The notes beneath the pieces are model-generated. The model made no database searches, was not told the DNA's origin, and saw only the letters and a list, made by a program, of their open reading frames with translations. Below are positions 3,245 to 59,689 of a stretch of DNA of 64,000 nucleotides, one piece after another. Numbering within the stretch: the first letter of the stretch is position 1; each line of letters begins with the position of its first letter. Position numbers and translations under genes: made by a program. The DNA is from Chiloscyllium plagiosum (taxonomy: Eukaryota), in the NCBI RefSeq assembly GCF_004010195.1, contig NC_057718.1, forward strand, positions 44,864,143 to 44,928,142, written 5' to 3'.

Positions 3245-3680
3245 CCTGTCTAGAACTAGAGGGTATAATCTCAGAGTGAGGGTCCCCCATTTAAGATAGA
3301 ATTGAGGAAAAACCTCTTCTGTCAGAGGATAGTGACTCAGTGAAATTCTTTACTGCAGGGGACTGAACAGGCTAAGTTACTGCTGGATTCTGAGGAAGGA
3401 TCACCGGACCCAAAACATTAACTCTGATTTCTCTGCACAGATGCTGCCAGACCTGCCGAGCTTTTCCAGGAAGTTCTGTTTTTGAATAGGCTGTGTTGTT
3501 ATGCATATTCAAAGTTGGGATAGACAGATTGTTCACTGGTAAAGATTTCAAGCGTTTGAGGGATAAGGCGGGAAAGTGGAATTCAGGATTATAAGATCAG
3601 CCATTATCTTATTGAATGGTGGCGCAGGTTCAATGGGCTAAATTGCCCATTCATGTTCCTGTACGTCATGGTCTTCTGAA
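3245..3680 (+). mobile_element. CR1 3' fragment interrupted by a short Penelope-like insert
   Basis: TCTAGAACTAGAGGG..TCTCAGAGTGAGGGG..CTTCTGTCAGAGG and ending ATCAGCCAT..ATTGAATGGTGG..CATGGTCTT. Confidence 0.8.
3386..3485 (+). mobile_element. Short Penelope-like terminal repeat with decayed hammerhead motif (family C)
   Basis: CTGAGGA-AGGATC-ACC-GGACCC-AAAACATTAAC followed by CAGATGCTGCCAGACCTGC..CTTTTCCAG. Confidence 0.65.
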
Positions 3681-6490: not shown

Positions 6491-7142
6491 ATCTAGTTTG
6501 GCAACAGTTGTGTATTTTAAGAACTGGTTTCTCCAAGATCTCCAATCTTGCCTTCTATTTGGTTTATCTCTGAAATTAAATCAACCAGGCAGTATTATTT
6601 TCTCTTGTCATTTCATCTTACTTTGATTATTTATTCTTCTTGCTTTAGAGTATTTTAATTTTGCAATATCTCAATACTGCTATTAACCTTCCCAAGTATA
6701 TTCTTACTTTTTCAATGTAATTTTTAAAATTTTCCTTGTCTTTAATGCTTTTAGACTATTAACTTGCAATGCCATGTCATTTGCAATCCTCTATGAGCAA
6801 ATTGATGGTCTCCTTTCATGTCGTGGGTAAAATGAATGATTTTCCACATTCCTGCCTAATAAACAACAGCTGTCCTTTTGCACAACTTCCCCAAATAAAG
6901 CCTTGAGCCTGCAGCCTTAATAAATCCTTGTCGCCTGAACCCTGTTTTAAATTATAGATCTTCCGCTCTTATCACAACCTCACTAATCAACTTAGTATCT
7001 TGTTGTTTGATTCCATCTGTTTAGACTTTTAAATTGTCCCTTTGTTACCCTAATTATGGCTTTGCAATGTTACCAGTGCCGCAACTTCTGTTTAAATAAG
7101 TTCAATATCCCTTCCTTACTGTAGCCATATCTTGTACTAGGC

Positions 7143-7265
7143 AAAAGTGAGGACTGCAGATGCTGGAAATTAGAATCTAGATTAGAGTTGCGCTAGAAAA
7201 GCACAGCCGGTCAGGCAGCATCCGAGGAGCAGGAAAATCGATGTTTCGGGCAAAAGCCCTTCATT
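7143..7265 (-). mobile_element. Short Penelope-like terminal repeat (family B), truncated at the hammerhead core
   Basis: AAAGTGAGGACTGCAGATGCTGG..AAAAGCACAG..GGCAGCATCCGAGGAGCAGG..GTTTCGGGCAAAAGCCCTTCAT; homologous to the copies at 12806, 26997, 40129 and 55120. Confidence 0.85.
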
Positions 7266-7941
7266 GGAGCTGTCAGCTCACTATAAAGGCAATGCTTTCG
7301 GTGAGCTGCCGTTACTCCTTTTAACTGCCATTCTTCCCAGTTCAAACTATACCATTAATTTCTATTCTTCTTCTTGTTCAACAGAATTTTTTAAGTTCAT
7401 TCAGGATACTCCAGCATCCTTTTGCTTGCTGGCTAAACCTTTAATTGGCACTGCTCCTGCAAATCCTTGCATCCCAATGGAATCTGTAATGGTCAGGCAT
7501 AACTAACTTCGAGCCCATATTTGCTTCTGCAAGTTGCTCCTGTTCTTGCCAACCTGCCCTAATCAGATCTACAGGAAAAAACTTTGTCATTGAGTGCTGT
7601 TTCTCCCCTGTTGGCCTTTCCATTAGTTTGTCTGCAGGCTCTTTGATTGTTGCATGTATATGAGTTGTTCCTAAAATCATAAAGTCATTTAAGATGTCAA
7701 TGGAAATTTACCTGAATGGACTGAAATTCTCTAAATTGATTACGAATCCACACCGTTATTACAATGTTGTGAGTGTAGTGATGCCAACCACTACCAGCTT
7801 ATTATTGGGCTAGTTTATTGTCACCATTCTGTTTTCTTGACTATGTCGAATAGCTTATTTGGTTTATAGTGGTGGAGGAAAACCACAAAGGGATCTTAAC
7901 GAGAAGAGGCATTTGTCTAAGACAAGATGCATGACAGTAAT

Positions 7942-8258: not shown

Positions 8259-8831
8259 TAGGTACGGGTTGCATTAGTATGTTAGATTGTGTTGCAAAGT
8301 CTCTGGGGACACTTGTGGATACAGTACAATCTCTTTGAAATGATTAAATATTTTTCCCATTTAAGGCTATATGACATCATCAGATTGGCTAGAGTTTAAA
8401 GCAGTCTCCAGCGCTAATGCTTTCAGAACCAGTACCTTATATAACAACTGACTCACATCATTTCCTCTTACAAGACAACTTTGCCAATTATTGGAGGCGG
8501 CATCCGCTATCTAGCAGGGACCAAGCAAGGGGCAAACATACACATCTGAGCTCCCATCAAGGCGATGTGGCTGACAATCATTTCCTCAGCCATCACAATG
8601 AAGGTGACTAGCATAGGGGCTGAATCTATTGTGGATGTGATAGGAACATGTCCAATCCACTTCCTCACATCCTTCAATCTGTTCTGGTGTAGCCAGAAAA
8701 CTCTGGCATTTCTCCAGTTCACTTACCTCACCCATTATCTTTTCATTTGTCTTCTTTCAGATACCAAAGCCATGCACTGAAGGCCCATAGCTGTTCAATG
8801 TTATCCTCCAAAGTCATCTGCACTAAAAGTT

Positions 8832-9261: not shown

Positions 9262-9722
9262 GTATGGAACAGGCCTTTCAGCCTACCATAATGTCATTCT
9301 AAACTAATCCCAACTGTCTGAACATGGTCCTTGCCTGTTCATGCATCGAAATGCTTCTTAAAAGTTGCTATTGTATCTGCTTCTACCATCTCCCTTGGTA
9401 GCACATTCCAAGCACCTACCACCCTCTGTGTAAAAAACGTACCATACACGCCTCCTTTAAACTTTCCCTCTCTCACCTCAAACCCATGTCCTCTCGTATT
9501 TGACATTTCCACCCTGGGAGAAAAGACTCCGACTATCCATCTTATCCGATTTACACAGTGGGTGGTAGGTGCTTAGAATGTACCACCAGGGGAGATGGCA
9601 GAAGCAGATACAATAGCAACTTTTAAGAAGCATTTCGATGCATGAACAGGTAAGGACAATATGCAGCCAGTTGGGATTAGGTTAGAATGATATTGTGGTA
9701 GGCTGAAAGGTCTGTTCCACAC
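9262..9722. repeat. Inverted repeat: about 173-bp arms (9262-9434 and 9550-9722), about 115-bp spacer
   Basis: CTGTTCATGCATCGAAATGCTTCTTAAAAGTTGCTATTGTATCTGCTTCT occurs in exact reverse complement in the second arm; about 90% overall identity by eye. Confidence 0.95.
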
Positions 9723-11853: not shown

Positions 11854-12513
11854 TGATTTGGAGGTTCTGGTACAAAGTTAAAAATCATACAACACCAGGT
11901 TATATGCGTGTGTGGGTGTGTGTGCATTGGGTGTGTGTGTGAGGAGGGGGGTATGAGTGCCTGTGAGAGAGTGTCTGAGAGAGAGTGTCTCACAGACACT
12001 TTTAACTCCCCCCACCAACCCCACCACACACACACACGTGCACTTACACACATATAAGTTTGTGAGGTGAATTTGTATTTGCAGAATTACATTTTATTTT
12101 GCTCAAAAACTTCATGAGTCCATGAAAGATTCTGTAAATCCCCTTTTTAGAAACAGAATCAGCCTGAACGTTGGGGCACAGGGCACCTCACACCTTCAAT
12201 GCATTATCTGAGCTGACATGGCACCTATTGTGAAAGTTCACTTGAGAATGTAACATTAAAAAAATGTTTTGCAACTTACATATGAAAGAACTGAAACCAA
12301 CGTGGTCATTCTAAAAGATGAGAGTCAAAACAAACAATCCAGGTCTTTTACAAAGTATAATTTCAGTTACATCACACTGTAAGCCTTTGTTATAAATTCT
12401 GTGTCTTACGATCTTATGCTCCACAACCACCTGAGGAAGGAACAGCGCTCCGAAAGCTAGTGCTTCCAAATAAACTTGTTGGACTATAACCTGGTGTTGT
12501 GTGATTTTTAAGT
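11854..12513 (+). mobile_element. Non-autonomous Penelope-like element (family A) with an inverted partial terminal repeat
   Basis: The terminal repeat at 12415-12513 is the reverse complement of the partial copy at 11854-11903; the internal part matches 35770-36145 in the opposite orientation; host CR1 TTA(C/T)AGAGA is duplicated at both flanks. Confidence 0.85.
12428..12462 (+). ncRNA. Minimal hammerhead ribozyme motif (Penelope-type)
   Basis: CAC-CUGAGGA-A-GGAAC/AGC/GCUCC-GAA-AGCU-A-GUG: stem I CAC/GUG, intact core, stem II with one mismatch, palindromic loopless stem III AGCU, predicted cut after A12459. Confidence 0.7.
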
Positions 12514-12805
12514 TTATAGAGAGATGTTGATAGGTTAAATAAATGGGCAAAAAAATTGGTAAATGGAGTATAATGCTGGAAAATGTGAAGTTGTCCATTT
12601 TGGAAGGGAGAACAAAAGAACAAAATATGTTTTAAATGGAGAGAAGGTGCAGAAAACTGCAACACAAAGGAACCTAGGGGGTACTTTGTGCACAAAGTAC
12701 AAAAGCTAACACACAGCAGGTAATCAGGATGATTAATGGATTGTTAGCTCTTTTTTCATGAGGGTGGAATATAACAATATGGAAGTCTTCCTATAACTGT
12801 ACAAG

Positions 12806-13017
12806 GGTCAAAGAGTGGAAAAGTACTACAGAACAGGCAGCATCCGAGGAGCAGGGAAGTTGAAATTTCGGACATAAGCCCTTAATCAGGAATATTGGGC
12901 TTATGCCCAAAATGTTGAATGTCCTGCTCCTCAGATGCTGCCTGACGTGCTGTGCTTTTCTAACACCATACTTTTCAACTCTGATCTCCAGCAACTGCTG
13001 TGCTCACTTTCTCTTTG
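12806..13017. mobile_element. Head-to-head pair of family B Penelope-like repeats with a 12-bp TSD
   Basis: TSD TAACTGTACAAG at 12794-12805 and 13018-13029; CAGGCAGCATCCGAGGAGCAGG is mirrored by CCTGCTCCTCAGATGCTGCCTG. Confidence 0.88.
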
Positions 13018-14714
13018 TAACTGTACAAGATACTGGTAAGACCAATCTGTGAGCAGTTTTGGTCCCCTTATTTAGGGAAAGATATTGTTTATTTGGAGGC
13101 AGTTCATGGAAGGTTTACTTGGATGATCCCCAATATGGAGGAATTGTCTTAGGTGCAAACACTAAACAGGTTGAAACTTTACCCGCAGGAGTTTAGAAGA
13201 ATGAGAGATGATCTCATTGAAACATTTAGGATTCATAAAGGGCTTCATCGGGTAAGTGCTGAGAGGATGTGTCCCCTCATGGGACAGTCTATGACCAGAG
13301 GAGTTGCAGAATATAGGGCTGCCAACTTTTGACTGAGATGAGGAGGAATTTCTCCTTGCTATAGAGAGCTCTTGGGGGAGGGGGGGGGGGTGGTCACAGT
13401 CCTTGAGTATATGGAAGGCTGTGATAGATAGGTTCTTGAGTGGTAGGGAAATCAAGAGTTTCAGGGAAAGTGCAAAAAAGTGTGGAATCTCAGATCAGCC
13501 ATGATCCTATGGTAGGGTAGGGCAGTCACGAAGGGCTGAATGGCCTGCTCCTCTTCCAATCTCTTATGGTTTTATGGTCTTGAAAGAGGGCATCAACTTG
13601 AGCAGCCAGGTCTAAAACAATTGCACTGGTGTCAAATCAGCATTCCATGCTAAATAATCCTGATCTGTGTACTCTGCAAATCCTGCTGCGTATTCCTAAT
13701 GTTCATTCTCATGGCCTCAATAAGGTGCCATTCAATGTGGGTTAGAGCTGAATTGGGAGCAAATGGCACAGTTGCCATTTTGCTTCCAAAATGACACATG
13801 TAGCATCAAAAAAAGCCTTACTTCAGCAGACACCAGAAAAATTTATCTCAGAAAGAATAATTTTTGTTTACTGCAGTAATTAGTTTCAATCATTTTTGAT
13901 AGAGACAGCTGGTCCACCTACTCTGAGGTTCATTATTGATGAATCTGCTTTAATTACCCTAAAAAATGTTTTTAAACTATAAATCAATATTTCTGTTGCC
14001 CTACATCTGACTAATTATTTATTCCTAAAATTCTACTCTGGGATCATTAAATTTTCCAAATCTAGGTAACTGAATTTTACCTCACTTTTTACTCAGTTTC
14101 TCAGTAAAATCTCTGAACCTATTTTAAGCATCTCTTTTTTTGAATTGATTCTTACATCTCCACCATTGCTTCATGTACTTACTATGGTTATAATTTCATT
14201 AAGTTCAGAAGACTTGTGATACCCTATAGCATGAATCTCATGCATTGTACTTCCAGCATGAGGCCAAGTTGAAGATACACACATGCACACACACACACAG
14301 CTTCAGACACACGACAATAACAATATTCAATTTTTTTATATTTTTTGAGGCCCAGTTTTTGGCAGGGGGTCACAGTGGGTGATGTTTTAAAAGTTTTGCA
14401 TTTTTCTTTTGTTGGTTTATTGTTTTCATTGCATACTTATTTTGTTGAGTTTCTTAAAAATAATTTCTTCTCCACCATATTGAGAATTTTATTTCTTAAC
14501 TAGCCAACAACACCATCAACATTCCTTCGGAAACTTCCCTCAGATGCACAACTAAAATGGTGACCACCATGTGTATATCCAGAGTTGACAGACAGTGTCT
14601 TGCTAACATTTTCAAAGGCACCCTTTTACTGTGGGCTTCCTTTGCCTGCAATTATGAAAAGATAATGAATGCCTACGGTTTCCTGTTTCCACAACTACAT
14701 ATCTTCACAGTGCT

Positions 14715-24184: not shown

Positions 24185-27100
24185 AACATATAACATAGAA
24201 CAATACAGTGCAAAACAGACCCTTTGGCCTGTGAACTAATCTAAGCTCATCCCCCTACACTATCCCATCATCATCCATGTGCTTATCCAAGGATTGTTTA
24301 AATCTCCCTAATGTGGCTGAGTTTACTACATTGGCAGGCAGGGCACTTCACGCCCTTCCCACTCTCTGAGTAAAGAACCTGTCTCTGACATCTGTCTTAA
24401 GTCTATCACCCCTCAATTTGTAGTTATGCCTCCTCATACAAGCTGACATCATCATCCTAGGAAAAAGACTTCCACTGTTTACCCTATCTAATCTGCTGAT
24501 CCTCTTGTATGTCTCTATCAAATCCCCTCTTAGCCTTATTCTTTCCAATGAGAACAGACCAAAGTCTGTCAGCCTTTCCTCATAAGACCTTCCCTCCAAA
24601 CCAGGCAACATCCTGGTAAATCTCCTCTGCACCTTTTCCAATGCTTCCACATCCTTTCTGTAATGAGGTGACCAGAGCTGTACACAATATTTCAAGTACA
24701 GCCGCACGAGCGTTTTGTATAGTTGCAGCATGACATTGCAGCTCCAGAACTCAATCCCTCTACCAATAAAACCTAACACACCATATGCCTTCTTAACAGC
24801 ACTATCAACCTGGGTGGCAATTTTCAGGGATCTATGTACATGGACTTCAAGATCTCTCGGCACACCCACACTACCAATAATCTTTCCATTGACCCAGTAT
24901 TCTGCCTTCCTGTTATTCTTCCCAAAATGGATCACCTCACATTTATCTGCATTGAACTATATTTGCCACATCTCAGCCCAATTCTGCAGTTTATCCAAGT
25001 CCCCCTGCACCTGCAACATTCTTCCACACTGTCCACTACTCCACCAACTTTAGTGTCACCTGCAAACTTACTAACCCATCCACCTTTGCCTGTGTCTAAA
25101 TCATTTATAAAAATGGTCCCAAAACAGATCCTTGTGACACACCATTAGTAACCGGACTCCAGGCTGAATATTTTCCATCAACAATCACTTGGTGCTTTCT
25201 TTCAGTTTCTAATCCAAACTGCTAAATCACTTTCAATCCCATGCCTCTGCATTTTTTCCAACAGCCTACCATATGGAACCTTATCAAAAGCTTTACTGAA
25301 GTCCATGTACACCACGTCAACTGCCCTACCCTCATCCACATGTTGGTCACCTTCTCAAAAAACTCAATGAGGTTTGTGAGACACGAGCTGCCCTTGTTGA
25401 CTATCTGCAATCAAATTGTTGCTTGCTAGATGATTATAAATCCTATCTCTTATAATCCTTTCCAAAATTTTTCCTACAATAGACGCAAAGCTCACTGGTC
25501 TATAATTAGTTGGTTCATCTCTACTGCCCTTCTTGAACAAGGGCACAACATCTGCAATCCTCTAGTCCTCTGGTACTAAACCTGTAGATAATGATGACTC
25601 AAACGTCAAAGCCAAAGGCTCTGCCATCTCCTCCCTAACTTCGCAGAGAATCCTCAAATAAATCCCATCCAATCCAGGGAACTTGTTTACTTTCACTCCT
25701 TCTCGAATTAATAACACCTCTTCCTTTCTAAGCTCGATCCTTTCTAGTCTAATATCTCACATCTTATTCTTCTCCTCTACAATATTCTCCTTTTCCTGAG
25801 TGAAAACCAATGAGAAATGTTTGTTTAGTACCTCTCCGATCTCCACAGGATCCACACACAACTTCCTACTTCTATCTTTGACTGGCCCTATTCCTACCCT
25901 AATCATCCTTTTATTCCTCACATACCTAGAGAAAGCTTTAGGGTTATCCTTTATTCTACCTGCTAAAGACTGTTCATGTACTCTCTTTGCTCTTCTTAAC
26001 TCTGTTTAAATCCCTTCTAGCTAATCTGTAACTCTCCATTGGCTTACCGGGACCATTTTGTCTCATCGACACATAAGTTTCCTTCTTCCACTTAACAAGA
26101 AATGCAATTTCTGTAGTAAACCACAGTTCCCTTACCTTATCACTTCCTCCCTGCCTGACAGGGACATACCTATCAAGGACACACAATATCTGTTCCTTAA
26201 ACCAGCTCCACATTTCAATTGTCCCTATCCCCTGCATTTTGCTACAGCATTCTTTGCATCCGAAGTGTTGCCTAATCGCATTATAATTGCCCTTGCCCAA
26301 TCGATAACTCTTGCCCTGTGGCATGTGCCTATCCCTTTCCATCGCTAAACTATATATAACTGAATTATGGTCACTCTCTCCAAAGTGCTCACCTATCACT
26401 AAATCAAACACCTGGCCTGGTCCATTACCAAGCACCAGATCCAGTATGGCCTCCCCTCTTGTCGGCCCTTTGACATACAGTGTCAGGAAACCCCCCCTGT
26501 ACACATTGGACAAAAACTGATCCAACTGACATACTAGAGTTGTAGCATTTCCAGTCAATGTTGGGGAAGTTAAAGCCCCCATAATGACCACCCTATTCCT
26601 TTCACTCCTACCAAGAATTGTATTGCCCATCCTCGCCTCCACTTTACTGGAACTCTGCGGAGGCCTATAAAAAAACTCTCAGCAGTGTGGCCTCTCCTCT
26701 CCTGTTTCTAACCTCAGCCCATACTACCTCAGTAGACGAGTCCTCGTCAAAAGTTCTTTCAACCACCATTATACTGTCCTTGACTAACAAGGCCACACCT
26801 CCCTCTCTTTTACCACCTTGCCTGTTCTTAATGAAAGATCTAAACCCTGGAACCTGCAACATCCATTCCTGACTCTGCTCTATCCATGTCTCCGAAATGG
26901 CCACAACATTGAAGTCCCAGGTACATATCCATGCTGCAATTTCACCTACCTTATTTCGGATACTTCTGGCATTGAAGTAGACACACTTCAAACCAGATTC
27001 TGGATTAGTGGGTGCTGGAAAAGCACAGCAGTTCAGGCAGCATCCAAGGAGCAGTAAAATCGACGTTTCAGGCAAAAGCCCTTCAACAGGAATACAGGCA

Positions 27101-27215
27101 GAGTGCCTGAAGGGTGGAGAGATAAAACCTTTTTACCTACACTTCAAACCAGCTGCCAACTCACATCCTCCTGTGCACTGGAACACCACCTCAGGTTCCC
27201 ATCCCCCTGTTAAGC
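24185..27215 (-). mobile_element. CR1 LINE, about 2.9 kb, ORF2 endonuclease and RT, disrupted
   Basis: LKCVYFNARSIRNKV..VAISETW, PTRGEAILDLVL..HFGESDHN, PLFKKGSRDEPTNYRPVS, LYKTLVR..LEKVQRRFTR; tail (AACATAG)n. Confidence 0.96.
26997..27138 (-). mobile_element. Family B Penelope-like repeat with a 14-bp TSD, inside CR1
   Basis: TSD ACACTTCAAACCAG at 26983-26996 and 27139-27152; minus strand CTGTTGA-AGGGC-TTTT-GCCT-GAAACGTC (mutated hammerhead). Confidence 0.9.
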
Positions 27216-28714: not shown

Positions 28715-28872
28715 TAAAAGCAAAATTCTGCTGATGCTGAAGACAGAAAATATTGCAGAAACTCAGCAGTTTGGAAGCAACTGTGAAGAAAGAAACAGAG
28801 TTAACATTTTGAATCTAATGACTCTTCTTTGGAACAGATTTTGCTAGGTTTCTCCAGCATTTTCTGCTTTTC
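28715..28872. mobile_element. Old family C Penelope-like repeat with an inverted partial copy
   Basis: CTGCTGATGCTG..AAACTCAGCAG..AAACAGAGTTAACATTTTG is the reverse complement of the 3386 family, followed by GTTTCTCCAGCATTTTCTGC. Confidence 0.55.
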
Positions 28873-28877
28873 TTGAT

Positions 28878-29716
28878 GGGTTAAGTAAGTGGATAAAAAG
28901 TTGGCAAATGGAGTATAAGGTGGAAAATGCAAATTTGTTCATGAAGGAGGAGAGAACAGAAGAACAGAGTATTTTTTAAATGGAGAAAAACTATAGAAAA
29001 CTGCAGCATAACAGGACTTAGGGGGGTACTTGAGCATGAGACACAGAAAACTAGCACACTGGTCCAGCAGGTAATCAGGAAGGCCAATGGAATATTGGCC
29101 CTTATTTCACGGAGGTTGAAGTATAAGAGTAGGGATGTCTTACTGCAACTTTACAAGGCACTGGTGAGATCACATCTCGAATATTGTGAGCAGTATTCAT
29201 CCTATTATTTAAGGAAAGCTATCATTTCATTGGAGGCAGTTCACAGAAGGTTTACTCACATGATGACCTATATAGAAGGATTGTTTTATGAGCAAAGGCT
29301 AAACAGATTGGAACTTGAATCACTGAAGTTTAGAAGAATAAGAGATGATCTCGTTGAAACATAAAAGATTCTTAAGGGATTTGACGGGATAAATGGAAAA
29401 TCTAGCACCAAATAGCACAGTCTCAAAATAAAGAGATGCTCAGTTAAGACAGAGATGTGGAGGGATTTCTCCTCTCAGAAGGCTGAATGTCTTTGGGACT
29501 CTTTACCGCAGAATGCTGTAGGAGTAGAGCCCTTGTGTATACAGTATTTAAGGCTGTGATAGGTTATTGATCAGTAGGGGAATCAACTGTTACAGGGAAG
29601 GGATAGGAAAGTGAACATGAAGAATGTCGGATCAATCATGATCCTACGAATGGTGGAGCACTCTCGAGCAGCTGTATGGCCTGCTTCTGTTCCTATTTCT
29701 TATGGCCTTATGATCT
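28878..29716 (+). mobile_element. CR1 3' fragment
   Basis: ORF 29095-29364 YKSRDVLLQLYKALVRSHLEYC..LEAVHRRFT; tail TCTTATGGCCTTATGATCTT. Confidence 0.9.
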
Positions 29717-34997: not shown

Positions 34998-35642
34998 CTG
35001 ATGTAGTACAGGAAAATTACAAGGTAGTCTATTGCAAAGTAGCTCTTGTCTTAAACAAGATCAGTTTATTGTATGACAGCAATCAGGTAGAAGTTACATT
35101 GATAGAGACAGATTTTATTCAAAGAAAATGACAAAGCATTACTTGGCTACCTGTCGCCTTTGAAATCCACTATTTTTCTGCCTTTCCCCAACCAAGTCCT
35201 TATGACATCATCAGATGAGGTGGAGTTTAATGCTGACTTCAGCATTTACCCTTTCAGAACCAATAACTTACACAACAGATATAACTTCTTGTTTTCATAT
35301 GAAAGATCAGCATTTTTCAGAGAGTATCTGCTATTTTTCTAAGTGGCTGGTCATCTTTTGATTGTTCTCTAATTTGGTAATGATGGAACTGTAACATGCA
35401 AGTTTGTATCTGAGATTAGTCCCCACAAATCTACATCCAGAACCTCAACCTGAGCTACAAATCTTCTCGAAACTCATTATTCCCCACTGTTTTACAATGG
35501 TGGCTACATCTGTGCAGATGTTAGGTACTGAAACTTTTGTAATCTGCTTCAAACACTCTGAGTGAGTTACTTAAATCTCAGTCACAACGGTCCATGAATA
35601 GCTTTCACTATAACCCTTCTATTCGTTAACCATAATGAGATG

Positions 35643-36380
35643 AGATTTGGAGGTGCCAGTGTAGGATTGGGGTGGACAAAGTTAAAAATCACACAACACC
35701 AGGTTATAGTCCAACAGGTTTGTTTGAAAGCACTAGCTTTTGGAGTGTTGCTCCTTCATCAGCTGCTTGTGGAGTATAAGATTGTAAGACAGAATTTATA
35801 CCTAAAGTTTACAGTGTGATGTAACTGAATTATATATTGAAAAACACCTGGATTGTTTGTTAAGTCTCTCATATTTTTGAATGAACACGTTGGTTTCAGT
35901 TCTTTCATATGTAAATTGCAGAACTTTTTTGAAAGTTACATTCTCAAGTGAACTTTAACAATTGGTGTCATGTCAGCCCAGATAATGCATTTAAGGTGTG
36001 AGGTGTCCTGTGTGAGGCTGTCTGTGCCACAATGTTCAGACTGATCCTAATCTAATAAACTGATTTATAGAATCATACATGGATTCATGCAGTTTTTGAG
36101 CAAAATAAAATGTAATTCTGCAAGTACAAATTCACCCCACAAATTTAAGTGTGTGTGTGTGTGTGTGTGTGTGGAGGGGGGGGGGGGGGGGGGGGTGCGG
36201 TTATGAGTGTCTCTGAGACAGTGTGTGTAAGTATGTGAGTGTGAGTGTAAAGGGGTATAAGTCTGTGAGAGGGTGCGTGTGAGTGTGGGAGTGTATGTGT
36301 GAGCGTATGAGAGAAAGCTTGTGTCTGAGAGAGCATCTAGGTAAGTATATTGGTCTGTAGGAGTGTATGTGTGTCTGTAG
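35643..36380 (-). mobile_element. Non-autonomous Penelope-like element (family A)
   Basis: GATTTGGAG..CAAAGTTAAAAATCACACAACACCAGGTTATAGTCCAACAGG; minus strand CTGATGA-A-GGAGC-AAC-ACTCC-AAAAGCTAGTG (hammerhead with G12 changed to A); internal region homologous to 12050-12420. Confidence 0.87.
36149..36195 (+). repeat. (GT)n microsatellite followed by a poly-G run
   Basis: About 12 GT units, then about 20 consecutive G. Confidence 0.95.
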
Positions 36381-37521: not shown

Positions 37522-37600
37522 CCACACACACTCATAAATTTGTGGGGTGAATTTGTACTTGCAGAATTACATTTTATTTTGTTCAAAAACTGCATGAATT
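37522..37600 (+). mobile_element. Internal fragment of family A Penelope-like element
   Basis: AAATTTGTGGGGTGAATTTGTACTTGCAGAATTACATTTTATTTTG matches 12056-12101 and the reverse complement of 36101-36146. Confidence 0.85.
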
Positions 37601-38665: not shown

Positions 38666-38737
38666 TTTAAATTAAGCCCTCCACCTCCATTCTTATTGCG
38701 GTTTAAATTAAGCCCTCCACCTCTATTCTTATTGCAG
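38666..38737 (+). repeat. 36-bp tandem duplication (2 copies, 2 mismatches)
   Basis: TTTAAATTAAGCCCTCCACCTC(C/T)ATTCTTATTGC(G/A)G twice. Confidence 0.95.
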
Positions 38738-40128: not shown

Positions 40129-40279
40129 GAGAAAGTGAGGTCTGCAGATGCTGGAGATCAAAGTTGAAACTTTATTGCTGGAACAGCACAGGCCCTAGGG
40201 CCTGTGCCCGAAACGTCGAATCTCCTGTTCTCTGGATGCTGCCTGACCTGCTGTGCTGTTCCAGCAATAAAGTTTCAAC
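40129..40279. mobile_element. 151-bp fold-back family B Penelope-like insertion with a 15-bp TSD
   Basis: TSD GTTTACCTCCACGTG at 40114-40128 and 40280-40294; perfect 29-bp inverted repeat at 40163-40191 and 40251-40279; the loop holds GGGC-CTGT-GCCC-GAAACGTC. Confidence 0.92.
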
Positions 40280-43678: not shown

Positions 43679-43795
43679 TTGGAAATGCCGGTGTTGGACT
43701 GGGGTGTACAAAGTTAAAAATCACACAACACCAGGTTATAGTCCAACAGGTTTAATTGGAAGCACACTAGCTTTCGGAGCGACGCTCCTTTATCA
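43679..43795 (-). mobile_element. Family A Penelope-like terminal repeat with a 13-bp TSD, inside L1
   Basis: TSD CCTAATAAATGAT at 43666-43678 and 43796-43808; minus strand TGATAA-A-GGAGC-GTC-GCTCC-GAAAGCTAGTG. Confidence 0.92.
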
Positions 43796-55075: not shown

Positions 55076-55119
55076 CCTGTGTGGATGAGGAACAGAGCTG
55101 TAGGGAGGATGAGCCAACT

Positions 55120-55207
55120 GTTTAGATCAGAGTGGTGCTGGAAAGCAGATCAGGTAGCATCTGAGGAGCAGGAAAATCAATGTTTCAGACAAAAGCCCTT
55201 CATCAGG
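55120..55207 (-). mobile_element. Family B Penelope-like repeat inside CR1 ORF1
   Basis: Minus strand CCTGATGA-A-GGGC-TTTT-GTCT-GAAACATT (CpG-decayed hammerhead). Confidence 0.85.
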
Positions 55208-55760
55208 CCATGGCACCGTGGTACAGGAGCCATTCAAAAGGGGGAAGCAAAAAAACAAATGGTAATTGTAGGGGATTCTATAATTAGAGTAATTGACAGC
55301 ATCCTTTGTGAGCCAGATCGTGAGTCTCGCTTGGTGTGTTGCCTGCCTGGTGCCAGGGTAATGAACATCTCTGACTGGCTTGAAAGGATATTTGAGAGGG
55401 ACGGGGAGGATCCAGGTGTTGTAGTCCATGTCGGGACAAACAACATAGGAAAGCCTAAGAAAGGAGATCTGTTTGGGGATTATCAGGAAGTAGAAACTAA
55501 ATTAAAGAACAAGTCCTCAAGAGTTATAATCTCCAGATTACTATCAAAGCCATGTGCAAATTGGCATAGGGACATGGGAAGAAGGGAAGTAAACCTGTGG
55601 CTAAAAGGGTGGTGCGGAAAAGAAGGTTTCCATTTCATAGGGCACTGGCATCAGTATTGGAACAGGAGGAATCTGTACTGTTGGGATATTCTGCACCTGA
55701 ACCAAGCTGGGACCAATGTTTGAGGGAAAAGGGGAAATAGGGTGGTCAACACGACTTTAA
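55208..55760 (+). pseudogene. CR1 ORF1 SGNH/GDSL-like esterase remnant
   Basis: Blocks GDS, G, GxN and DxxH are all present in ORF 55079-55723. Confidence 0.88.
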
Positions 55761-58700: not shown

Positions 58701-59689
58701 TAAGGCAGAGATAGATAGGTTCTTGATTGTCAAGAGGATCAAAGGTTAGCTGGAGAAAGCAGGATAATGGGGTTGATAAACTTATCAGACATGACTGAAT
58801 GGCAAAGAAAACCCAATGGGCCAAGTGGTCTAATTTCTGCTCCTTTGCCTGTTGGTCTAAAATGTTTGCCCTATTACTAAAAGACTGCCGACCAGCAAGA
58901 CCAGCAGCCTGTCGCCGTACTAAAAGACAAGGCAGGGATGCTGTGAGCATGCACATAGGCATTAAGTCAGTGAAAGCTCAGAGGGCAATTGAGTAGCTCA
59001 GAGATGCAGCCTGCTCTAGTATGTGAGCTGGATGTGTGTCCCTACAAGTGTCCATCTGCAGCATTGTAATTATAGGCGCTGGTGTGCTCCAAAATGCAGC
59101 TTTAAAGTGCAGAAGTGTTCTGCAATTAGCTTGGAGACATGTCATGAGAGTCTGTGCGACTCTGATTGTTGGATTCCAATGTTTGTTAGCATGATGTGTG
59201 TGCAGCTGACGACCTGGAACATGCCTTAAGACGTTGCTGGCCGTATAAGTGACTAGATAGGATTTGTTGTTGTCTAGTTTCCTGGTGGTGATTGGTAGAC
59301 AAAAACCTGAGGTAAGATTCAGTGTTAATGAGGCTATTGCTAAGCAAAATCACCATTAATCTGCATCTCCCCACTCCCTATCGAGAATCTCATTTCAATA
59401 CTGCCAGATCTGCTAAGATTTTCTAGAAATTTCTGTTTTTGTTTCTGATTTCCTGCATGTGCAGTTCTTCACTTTTTTGCTGTAGTGCATATTTTTGTTC
59501 GATATGATGTGAGCTAAGTGTTCGTAATGAGCGTTTAGTTCATTTCAACATAAGAATCAAGTTTGAAACTTGCAAATAATAAGTTTATGAATCCTTTCTT
59601 AATCTTCTCGACCTCTAATATAGAATTTTTAAACGTTTAGATTAGGAATAATGAAGAAAAAAATTGCAATTATGAAGTCCATTACATGG

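Follow-up and report, generated by a model that had tools for sequence, protein, structure and literature searches.

What kind of element carries the hammerhead-like motif at 12428..12462, how did its relatives come to be scattered around it, and does any of them still work? The whole stretch of 64,000 nucleotides analysed here, referred to below as the window, is animal DNA of 40% G+C, rich in decayed CR1-like and L1-like LINE pieces. In the initial annotation, at least eight dispersed copies were described as minimal hammerheads of Penelope-like elements (PLEs), falling into three families (A, B, and C) at a density of about one relic per 6-8 kb. All nine coordinates named there carry the layout described (minus-strand copies being cited by their left ends), and profiles add two segments absent from that account, another copy of family C (minus strand, C3 at 28832) and a second half-motif at 12897 (plus strand). 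In total, 10 insertions in the window contain 11 hammerhead segments, i.e., one per about 6 kb (6.4 kb), which is far above shuffles and agrees with the density proposed.

With up to three mismatches allowed, the family A pattern has three matches in the window and the family B pattern two, each against none in 100 shuffles. A strict hammerhead descriptor gives a single match (12431) and none in any of 15 shuffles; a relaxed one gives six matches against a shuffle mean of 1.3 (maximum 4), and the loosest gives eight against 2.9, two of the eight being chance hits. Matches to CUGANGA...GAAA at 8383, 11249, 18725, 28737, 29720, 35214, 43224, and 50424 fail the stem and palindrome test, as do those at 12118 and 14875, which appear at the loosest descriptor setting. 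A search of the window against Rfam at E up to 5 returned seven matches, none of them a hammerhead. Other repeats in the window include an inverted repeat at 9262-9722, whose 173-nt arms are 91% complementary, lie 115 nt apart, and resemble a folded-back LINE 3' end; a two-copy repeat at 35183-35277 and 8352-8446, 75% alike, with CTGATGA but no hammerhead stems; and a 36-bp tandem duplication at 38666-38735 (97% alike).

The hammerheads, the insertions that carry them, and the related pieces are the following.

12428..12462, plus strand: family A minimal hammerhead, helix I formed by 12428-30/12460-62
12431-37, plus strand: core C3-A9 of this hammerhead, followed by a bulged A
12439-51, plus strand: its stem II, with an A.C mismatch at 12442
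12452-54, plus strand: its G12-A14, followed by the palindrome at 12455-58 and H17 at 12459, the cut site being 3' of H17
11856..12513, plus strand: whole family A insertion, in a CR1-like LINE fragment as host sequence
11856-11977, part of that insertion: inverted family A piece, internally deleted, with tail
11986-12513, part of that insertion: forward family A copy, 5'-truncated, without tail
35636..36220, minus strand: family A copy with tail, C3 at 35762, G12 lost
43679..43795, minus strand: family A copy with tail whose 5' end is core base U4, G8 lost; target duplication of 13 bp (43666-78/43796-808)
37523..37599, plus strand: 77-nt family A upstream piece without a hammerhead
7135..7270, minus strand: family B copy with tail, C3 at 7267, with a broken palindrome and without U4 and G5; a search for a target duplication found none
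12806..13017, both strands: family B fold-back insertion with a 12-bp target duplication 12794-805/13018-29; the inverted arm holds a minus-strand hammerhead (C3 at 12889, G8 lost), and the forward arm begins at stem II (12897), has lost G12, and bears the tail
26997..27138, minus strand: family B copy without tail, starting 49 nt upstream of C3 (27089), A6 lost; 14-bp target duplication 26983-96/27139-52
40129..40279, both strands: family B fold-back insertion with a 15-bp target duplication 40114-28/40280-94; the tail is on the inverted arm only, and the forward arm begins at stem II (40198)
55111..55212, minus strand: family B copy without tail, C3 at 55206, with a complete core, a broken palindrome, and two G.U pairs in stem II
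3374..3482, plus strand: family C copy with C3 at 3390, a broken palindrome, and G12 lost
28718..28878, both strands: family C fold-back insertion, C3 at 28832 on the minus strand; U4, G5, and G12 lost
59398..59474, plus strand: family C 3' piece without a hammerhead

The minimal core that was tested consists of C3, U4, G5, A6, N7, G8, and A9 on one side and of G12, A13, A14, A15.1, U16.1, and H17 on the other. It is complete in two of the 11 segments (12428 and 55206); the majority sequences of families A and B have it complete, and the family C core is deduced from two decayed copies. The unpaired base between positions 9 and 10.1 is A in 10 segments, the 11th being truncated there, and the pair 10.1-11.1 is G-C in nine of the 11 and G.U in two. 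Stem II measures 4-5 bp in the window families, helix I has 0-3 contiguous bp in the window segments with no loop 3, and helix III is loopless, its palindromic 15.2-16.2 portion being intact in all three family A segments, in two of six from family B, and in neither of the two from family C. Broken family B palindromes are mostly one or the other CpG decay product, while the two family C copies show the two complementary decay products of the palindrome.

The covariation claimed between the families is borne out by compensatory differences, since the stems differ yet stay paired: 10.3-11.3 is A-U or G-C, 10.4-11.4 is G-C, C-G, or U-A, and the palindrome centre 15.2-16.2 is G-C or C-G, as read by eye in three families only and without a statistic. 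The copy at 12428 had been credited with the whole core. It does keep all 12 core positions and the palindrome, the only one of the 11 segments to combine the two, but its stem II contains the A.C mismatch at 12442; at 55206, all core positions are kept and the palindrome is lost. The family A copy cited at 43768 has the expected layout, but the apparent change of C3 at 43796 is a 5' truncation, because that base belongs to the target duplication. The segments at 40198 and 12897 are without any CUGANGA half.

The state of the copies is seen best in family B, where six segments could be compared with their majority within the window. Non-CpG positions have changed in 4 of 48 cases in the core and in 17 of 219 cases outside it, and CpG positions in 15 of 48. 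Core and flanks decay at similar rates, and the decay of family B is therefore neutral, with no sparing of the core. The hammerhead copies in the window are dead, and what their density in the genome counts is inert relics.

The hallmarks of PLE insertions are 5' truncation, an adjacent inverted copy, and a tail at one end (Craig et al. 2021, PMC8557442), and this is the anatomy that the insertions in the window show. Truncation at the 5' end with a shared 3' end is seen across the families. An adjacent inverted truncated copy accompanies four of the 10 insertions (11856, 12806, 28718, and 40129). Some copies carry a tail of about 35 nt, which in the three fold-backs of families A and B is found on one arm only; contigs from related genomes also form two classes of 3' ends, passing either at about 12511 into unrelated flanks or continuing past 12515 into the tail. 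Perfect target duplications of 12, 13, 14, and 15 bp flank four of the 11 units tested, while none of 1,500 random window pairs taken as a null scored above 11. At the other seven units, no duplication rises above this null: none was found at 7267, 55206, 35762, 28832, or 59398, that at 3390 is weak (10 bp, 3364-73/3483-92, 9/10 alike), and that at the 12428 insertion is imperfect (11845-55/12514-26) and by itself not above the null. The LINE flanks of 11856..12513 are contiguous in four of four other LINE copies compared, with an overlap of 6-13 nt in three of them. At 40180-40210, the fold-back junction of the 40129..40279 insertion is a short perfect palindrome joined via 6 nt that loop II and the downstream arm have in common, which suggests that stem II was the site of snap-back priming.

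A pyrimidine tract ending in CAG and followed by ATG lies directly after the family C motif (3420-3450 and 28775-28800) and resembles a 3' splice site; a similar tract-CAG-ATG arrangement is found in family B 20 nt after H17. PLEs hold an intron near the pseudo-LTR (pLTR).

A tblastn search of the window with four PLE protein queries revealed no PLE coding remnant (best E 0.06), and Pfam searches of eight of the 59 long window frames gave no PLE domain, the matches being to a LINE-type endonuclease and a GDSL esterase. Thus, the description of the elements as ORF-less is true of the copies in the window, among which tblastn finds no significant match, but is not established for the elements from which they came; with no coding remnant in the window, the sources of families A, B, and C are not traced to an ORF of their own. 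It had also been proposed to look for a linked ORF with reverse transcriptase (RT) and GIY-YIG domains. None stands beside the window copies, but one is present upstream of a near-identical motif in a metagenome contig.

In metagenomes, the exact family A pattern was found in two contigs, L001 and L002, which come from another organism. Both are marine metagenome contigs with a tandem and inverted Neptune-type PLE and an intact minimal hammerhead, and L001 carries an inverted RT piece. The L002 motif, 89% identical to 12428 over 35 nt, is preceded upstream by the end of an ORF. Atlas assigns this ORF end to the GIY-YIG proteins (0.97), Pfam returns no match for it, and it is 44-47% identical to two proteins with an RT, a Zn-finger, and a GIY-YIG domain, i.e., the Neptune-type layout (PMC8557442). 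A PDB search with the L002 protein returned designed WD40 repeats only, judged to be chance. Downstream of the motif, the likeness of L002 to family A is weak, since 13 of 2,000 shuffles scored as high; both contigs are homologous to family A only over the motif and weakly beyond it. Family A is probably Neptune-type. Elsewhere, the exact family A and family B patterns have no loci in viral contigs, and the exact family B pattern has none in prokaryote genomes. A loose hammerhead pattern matches 35 loci in viral contigs, one of them with a 4-bp stem II and the palindrome. Among these phage contigs, L005, L008, L016, L021, L026, and L032 have in common a CUGAUGA...GAAA-GCUA motif with a very short stem II, and L010, L012, L024, L034, and L037 another common motif; these may be compact phage hammerheads or coding sequence.

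Thousands of minimal hammerheads of PLEs are known to be dispersed in vertebrate genomes (Cervera & De la Pena 2014, PMC4209133), and the assignment of the window motifs to this class holds, all four traits that this paper gives beyond the descriptor being present. The type I core, the extra base between 9 and 10.1, the G10.1-C11.1 pair, and the loopless palindromic helix III are the same, as are the short helix I and the occurrence of many dispersed single copies in families, with some pairs close together on opposite strands. Stem II is 4-5 bp here against 7-8 bp in the schistosome families of PMC4209133. That paper names bony fishes, coelacanth, Xenopus, and reptiles, and two of its three supplements contain no shark term. 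Published work records PLEs in the whale shark (10.1101/443036); a literature search, which covered PMC4209133 except for one supplement, found no paper in which these hammerhead families are named from sharks. The class is thus the one described in 2014, to which the window adds three families. The insertions also resemble those of endonuclease-positive (EN+) PLEs in their 5' truncation, adjacent inverted truncated copy, and one-sided 30-40-bp tail (PMC8557442, PMC11167929), as well as in the uncut hammerhead within the copies and in having no reads that start at the cut site. Unlike those insertions, they have no ORF or tandem partner in the window, and the families are not traced to a master element.

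The motifs are therefore best regarded as the likely 3' ends (pseudo-LTR modules) of three endonuclease-positive PLE families, and it is likewise probable that families A, B, and C derive from ORF-bearing PLEs. For this class of hammerheads, weak cleavage that depends on a dimer or on a protein is established; in vitro, cleavage requires the protein and is unneeded for insertion (PMC11167929). In a live element, the motif would fold as a dimer through its 4-nt palindrome, probably with the help of a protein, and would cut after H17. Reverse transcription would start at either of two sites, 55-95 nt downstream of where the ribozyme cuts (steps that follow PMC11167929), and whether a copy has the tail or lacks it would be due to this choice, as two RT start sites have been put forward to explain the tail (Frangieh et al. 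2024, PMC11167929). The RT would prime at the nicked target and copy backwards through the uncut hammerhead, usually ending prematurely, in many cases at the 5' half of the motif, and sometimes folding back to produce an inverted arm; repair would leave target duplications of 12-15 bp. Every copy arrives dead and lacks a tandem partner, and its decay is neutral, as the window shows.

A less probable but credible explanation is that families B and C, and perhaps A, come from short non-autonomous masters, SINE-like elements that exploit PLE proteins; their copies would be almost complete rather than truncated, and the master RNA would begin just upstream of the hammerhead. Such PLE derivatives have been described (PMC8557442; 10.64898/2026.07.22.740005), the window contains no ORF, and 5' ends do cluster at the upstream edge of the motif (43795, 12897, 40198, 55206, and 3374). 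Seven of the 10 motif-bearing insertions start inside the motif or at most about 16 nt upstream of C3, and even though these copies were chosen for carrying the motif, the clustering is tighter than random truncation suggests. However, the 5' ends are not fixed: some lie within the motif and others as far as more than 440 nt upstream, with offsets from C3 of +1, +8, -16, -49, and below -440, and read and contig depth, which rises toward the 3' end, falls gradually upstream rather than in one step. In family A, the claim of short non-coding elements holds only in part, as not all of them are short. The segments 11986-12515 and 36220-35678 are 82% identical over about 530 nt, so that upstream-plus-motif sequence of this length is common to two copies, and 35636..36220 has at least 450 nt of shared non-coding upstream sequence that ends in a CA-rich tract.

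Derivation from ORF-bearing PLEs also has to be weighed against the term retrozyme-like, which had been applied to these elements. In metazoan non-LTR retrozymes, ribozyme-cut monomers circularise and are then reverse-transcribed; they consist of tandem repeats with a hammerhead in every unit and are expressed as circles (PMC7229834; 10.64898/2026.07.22.740005). There is a real kinship, as retrozymes are likewise non-coding, carry a type I hammerhead, are related to PLE pLTRs, and have long target duplications. Moreover, Li et al. 2026 (10.64898/2026.07.22.740005) report retrozymes in one cartilaginous fish, which they derive from PLE pLTRs, and observed cleavage in one of nine Xenopus dimers. 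The definition of 2020 requires a canonical type I hammerhead with a 6-bp helix I and loop-loop contacts (PMC7229834), while the 2026 preprint (10.64898/2026.07.22.740005) admits minimal motifs in retrozymes too. Retrozymes are, however, tandem 150-450-bp units that give circular RNA, whereas the window holds single or fold-back copies with variable 5' ends. None of the five tandem arrays in the window overlaps a motif, same-strand neighbours within a family lie 5.6-28 kb apart, and none of the 11 segments starts at the hammerhead cut site. With fold-back arms and tails that are PLE hallmarks, and with motifs that are minimal and not of the canonical loop-loop kind, a retrozyme origin is very unlikely, and the label has to be corrected: these are 3' ends of PLEs, not retrozymes.

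It is still less plausible, to the point of being nearly negligible, that selection has maintained the 12428 copy as a functional ribozyme where it stands, although it is the sole copy with a full core and palindrome. At 12442, G accounts for about 95% of contig depth and for 1,157 of 1,316 minus-mate RNA reads, and the mismatch is thus private to this copy. According to the energy model, its RNA has a hammerhead-like fold of -0.6 kcal/mol against -7.6 for an alternative fold that is 7 kcal/mol more stable, and misfolding is predicted. For the intact natural copy in L001, the same model gives -10.0 kcal/mol for the hammerhead and -11.0 for another fold, with no gain upon dimerisation (-20.1 against 2 x -10.0 for the monomers); folding z-scores of monomers, from -1.5 to +1.4, are uninformative. 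Moreover, the 12428 copy has no partner nearby and sits inside a decayed LINE fragment, and neutrality at a non-CpG decay of about 8% would itself leave one or two of 11 cores complete. Finally, a chance look-alike in ordinary repeats might be suspected from the lack of a hammerhead match in Rfam, the matching of loose descriptors to shuffles, the weak folding z-scores, and the 34 of 35 phage matches to the loose pattern that lack a 4-bp stem II with the palindrome, but this reading is refuted, as far as sequence can do so, by three families that keep the same core and pairing with different stems, by majority letters in contigs that restore the family A stem, and by the same motif in a PLE contig.

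As the 3' end of a PLE, the family A module has a further property, a polyadenylation cassette just behind the ribozyme:

12469..12509, plus strand: family A poly(A) cassette, with AATAAA at 12469-74, the junction at about 12487, and a GU/U-rich stretch at 12490-12509, the whole placed 10-50 nt past the hammerhead cut site

Four of 24 sequencing runs were compared with 12060-13050 at 80% likeness. Two runs of unrecorded kind gave 44,007 and 80,406 matching contigs, whose depth is no measure of copy number, and the families are therefore very abundant in related genomes. Another, X16, is a single-cell poly(A) run with a fragmented library, a type blind to cut ends, of which about 2% was read. 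It yielded 5,090 matching reads, only 14 of them at 99% or more, and the reads therefore come from other copies, perhaps from another species. In 766 of the 5,090, poly(A) is joined about 28 nt after the family A cut site, behind AATAAA, in a single run counted in reads, not molecules, in which a few highly expressed host genes could give all the junctions. Among the loose ends listed for X16 (there are 2,862 further rows), the A-run is joined behind 12486 after an extra C in 341 reads and behind 12489 in 425; both forms fit cleavage at about 12487, 13 nt after AATAAA and before the GU-rich stretch, and they imply at least two loci. The family A element itself has no A-run at the junction, and none is found there among the top loose ends listed for three contig runs. 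Depth in X16 is continuous across the ribozyme cut site, and the RNAs in this run therefore hold the motif uncut. No position was found at which molecules start or stop in large numbers, a signal to which this kind of library is blind. In L001 and L002, AATAAA stands 19 nt after the cut site, while the window copies 35762 and 43796 have variant hexamers after the motif. As a separate observation, 354 X16 reads leave the repeat at 12419, just upstream of the hammerhead, and enter one fairly uniform flank, which suggests that a single well-expressed host transcript has its end in a family A copy.

Use of the poly(A) site in family A is likely on these grounds, and the site probably both ends the RNA of the element and is borrowed by host transcripts. 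No statement on a PLE poly(A) signal was found in the literature searched, which leaves out most subscription papers, including Lunse et al. 2017, and the accessible text of PMC4209133 does not mention a poly(A) site after the motif, unlike what is seen in family A. The ORF of the Anolis element Poseidon begins within the hammerhead itself; in family A, the corresponding frame contains a stop, and the poly(A) site is present instead. The hammerhead in the 3' UTR of mammalian Clec2 genes (PMC6765202) likewise has its cut site upstream of the poly(A) signal, and its cleavage would thus detach the tail. However, the Clec2 ribozyme is discontinuous, active, and confined to a single locus, whereas family A bears this layout within a mobile repeat, needs a partner, and its cleavage is predicted.

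It is conceivable, though quite unlikely, that family A is a mobile ribozyme plus poly(A) cassette acting as an mRNA off switch, in which cleavage triggered by a dimer or by a PLE protein strips the tails. The family A poly(A) site, which follows the cut site by 28 nt, would then terminate many host transcripts, and cleavage would deprive these RNAs of their tails whenever two of them came together via the palindrome or the protein of the element was expressed.

If host polyadenylation ends the pLTR RNA just past the ribozyme, it is not the ribozyme that makes the 3' end of the element, and the poly(A) result, if true, matters for the open question of the function of PLE hammerheads. In that case, a very abundant repeat would also offer host genes a ready supply of poly(A) sites.
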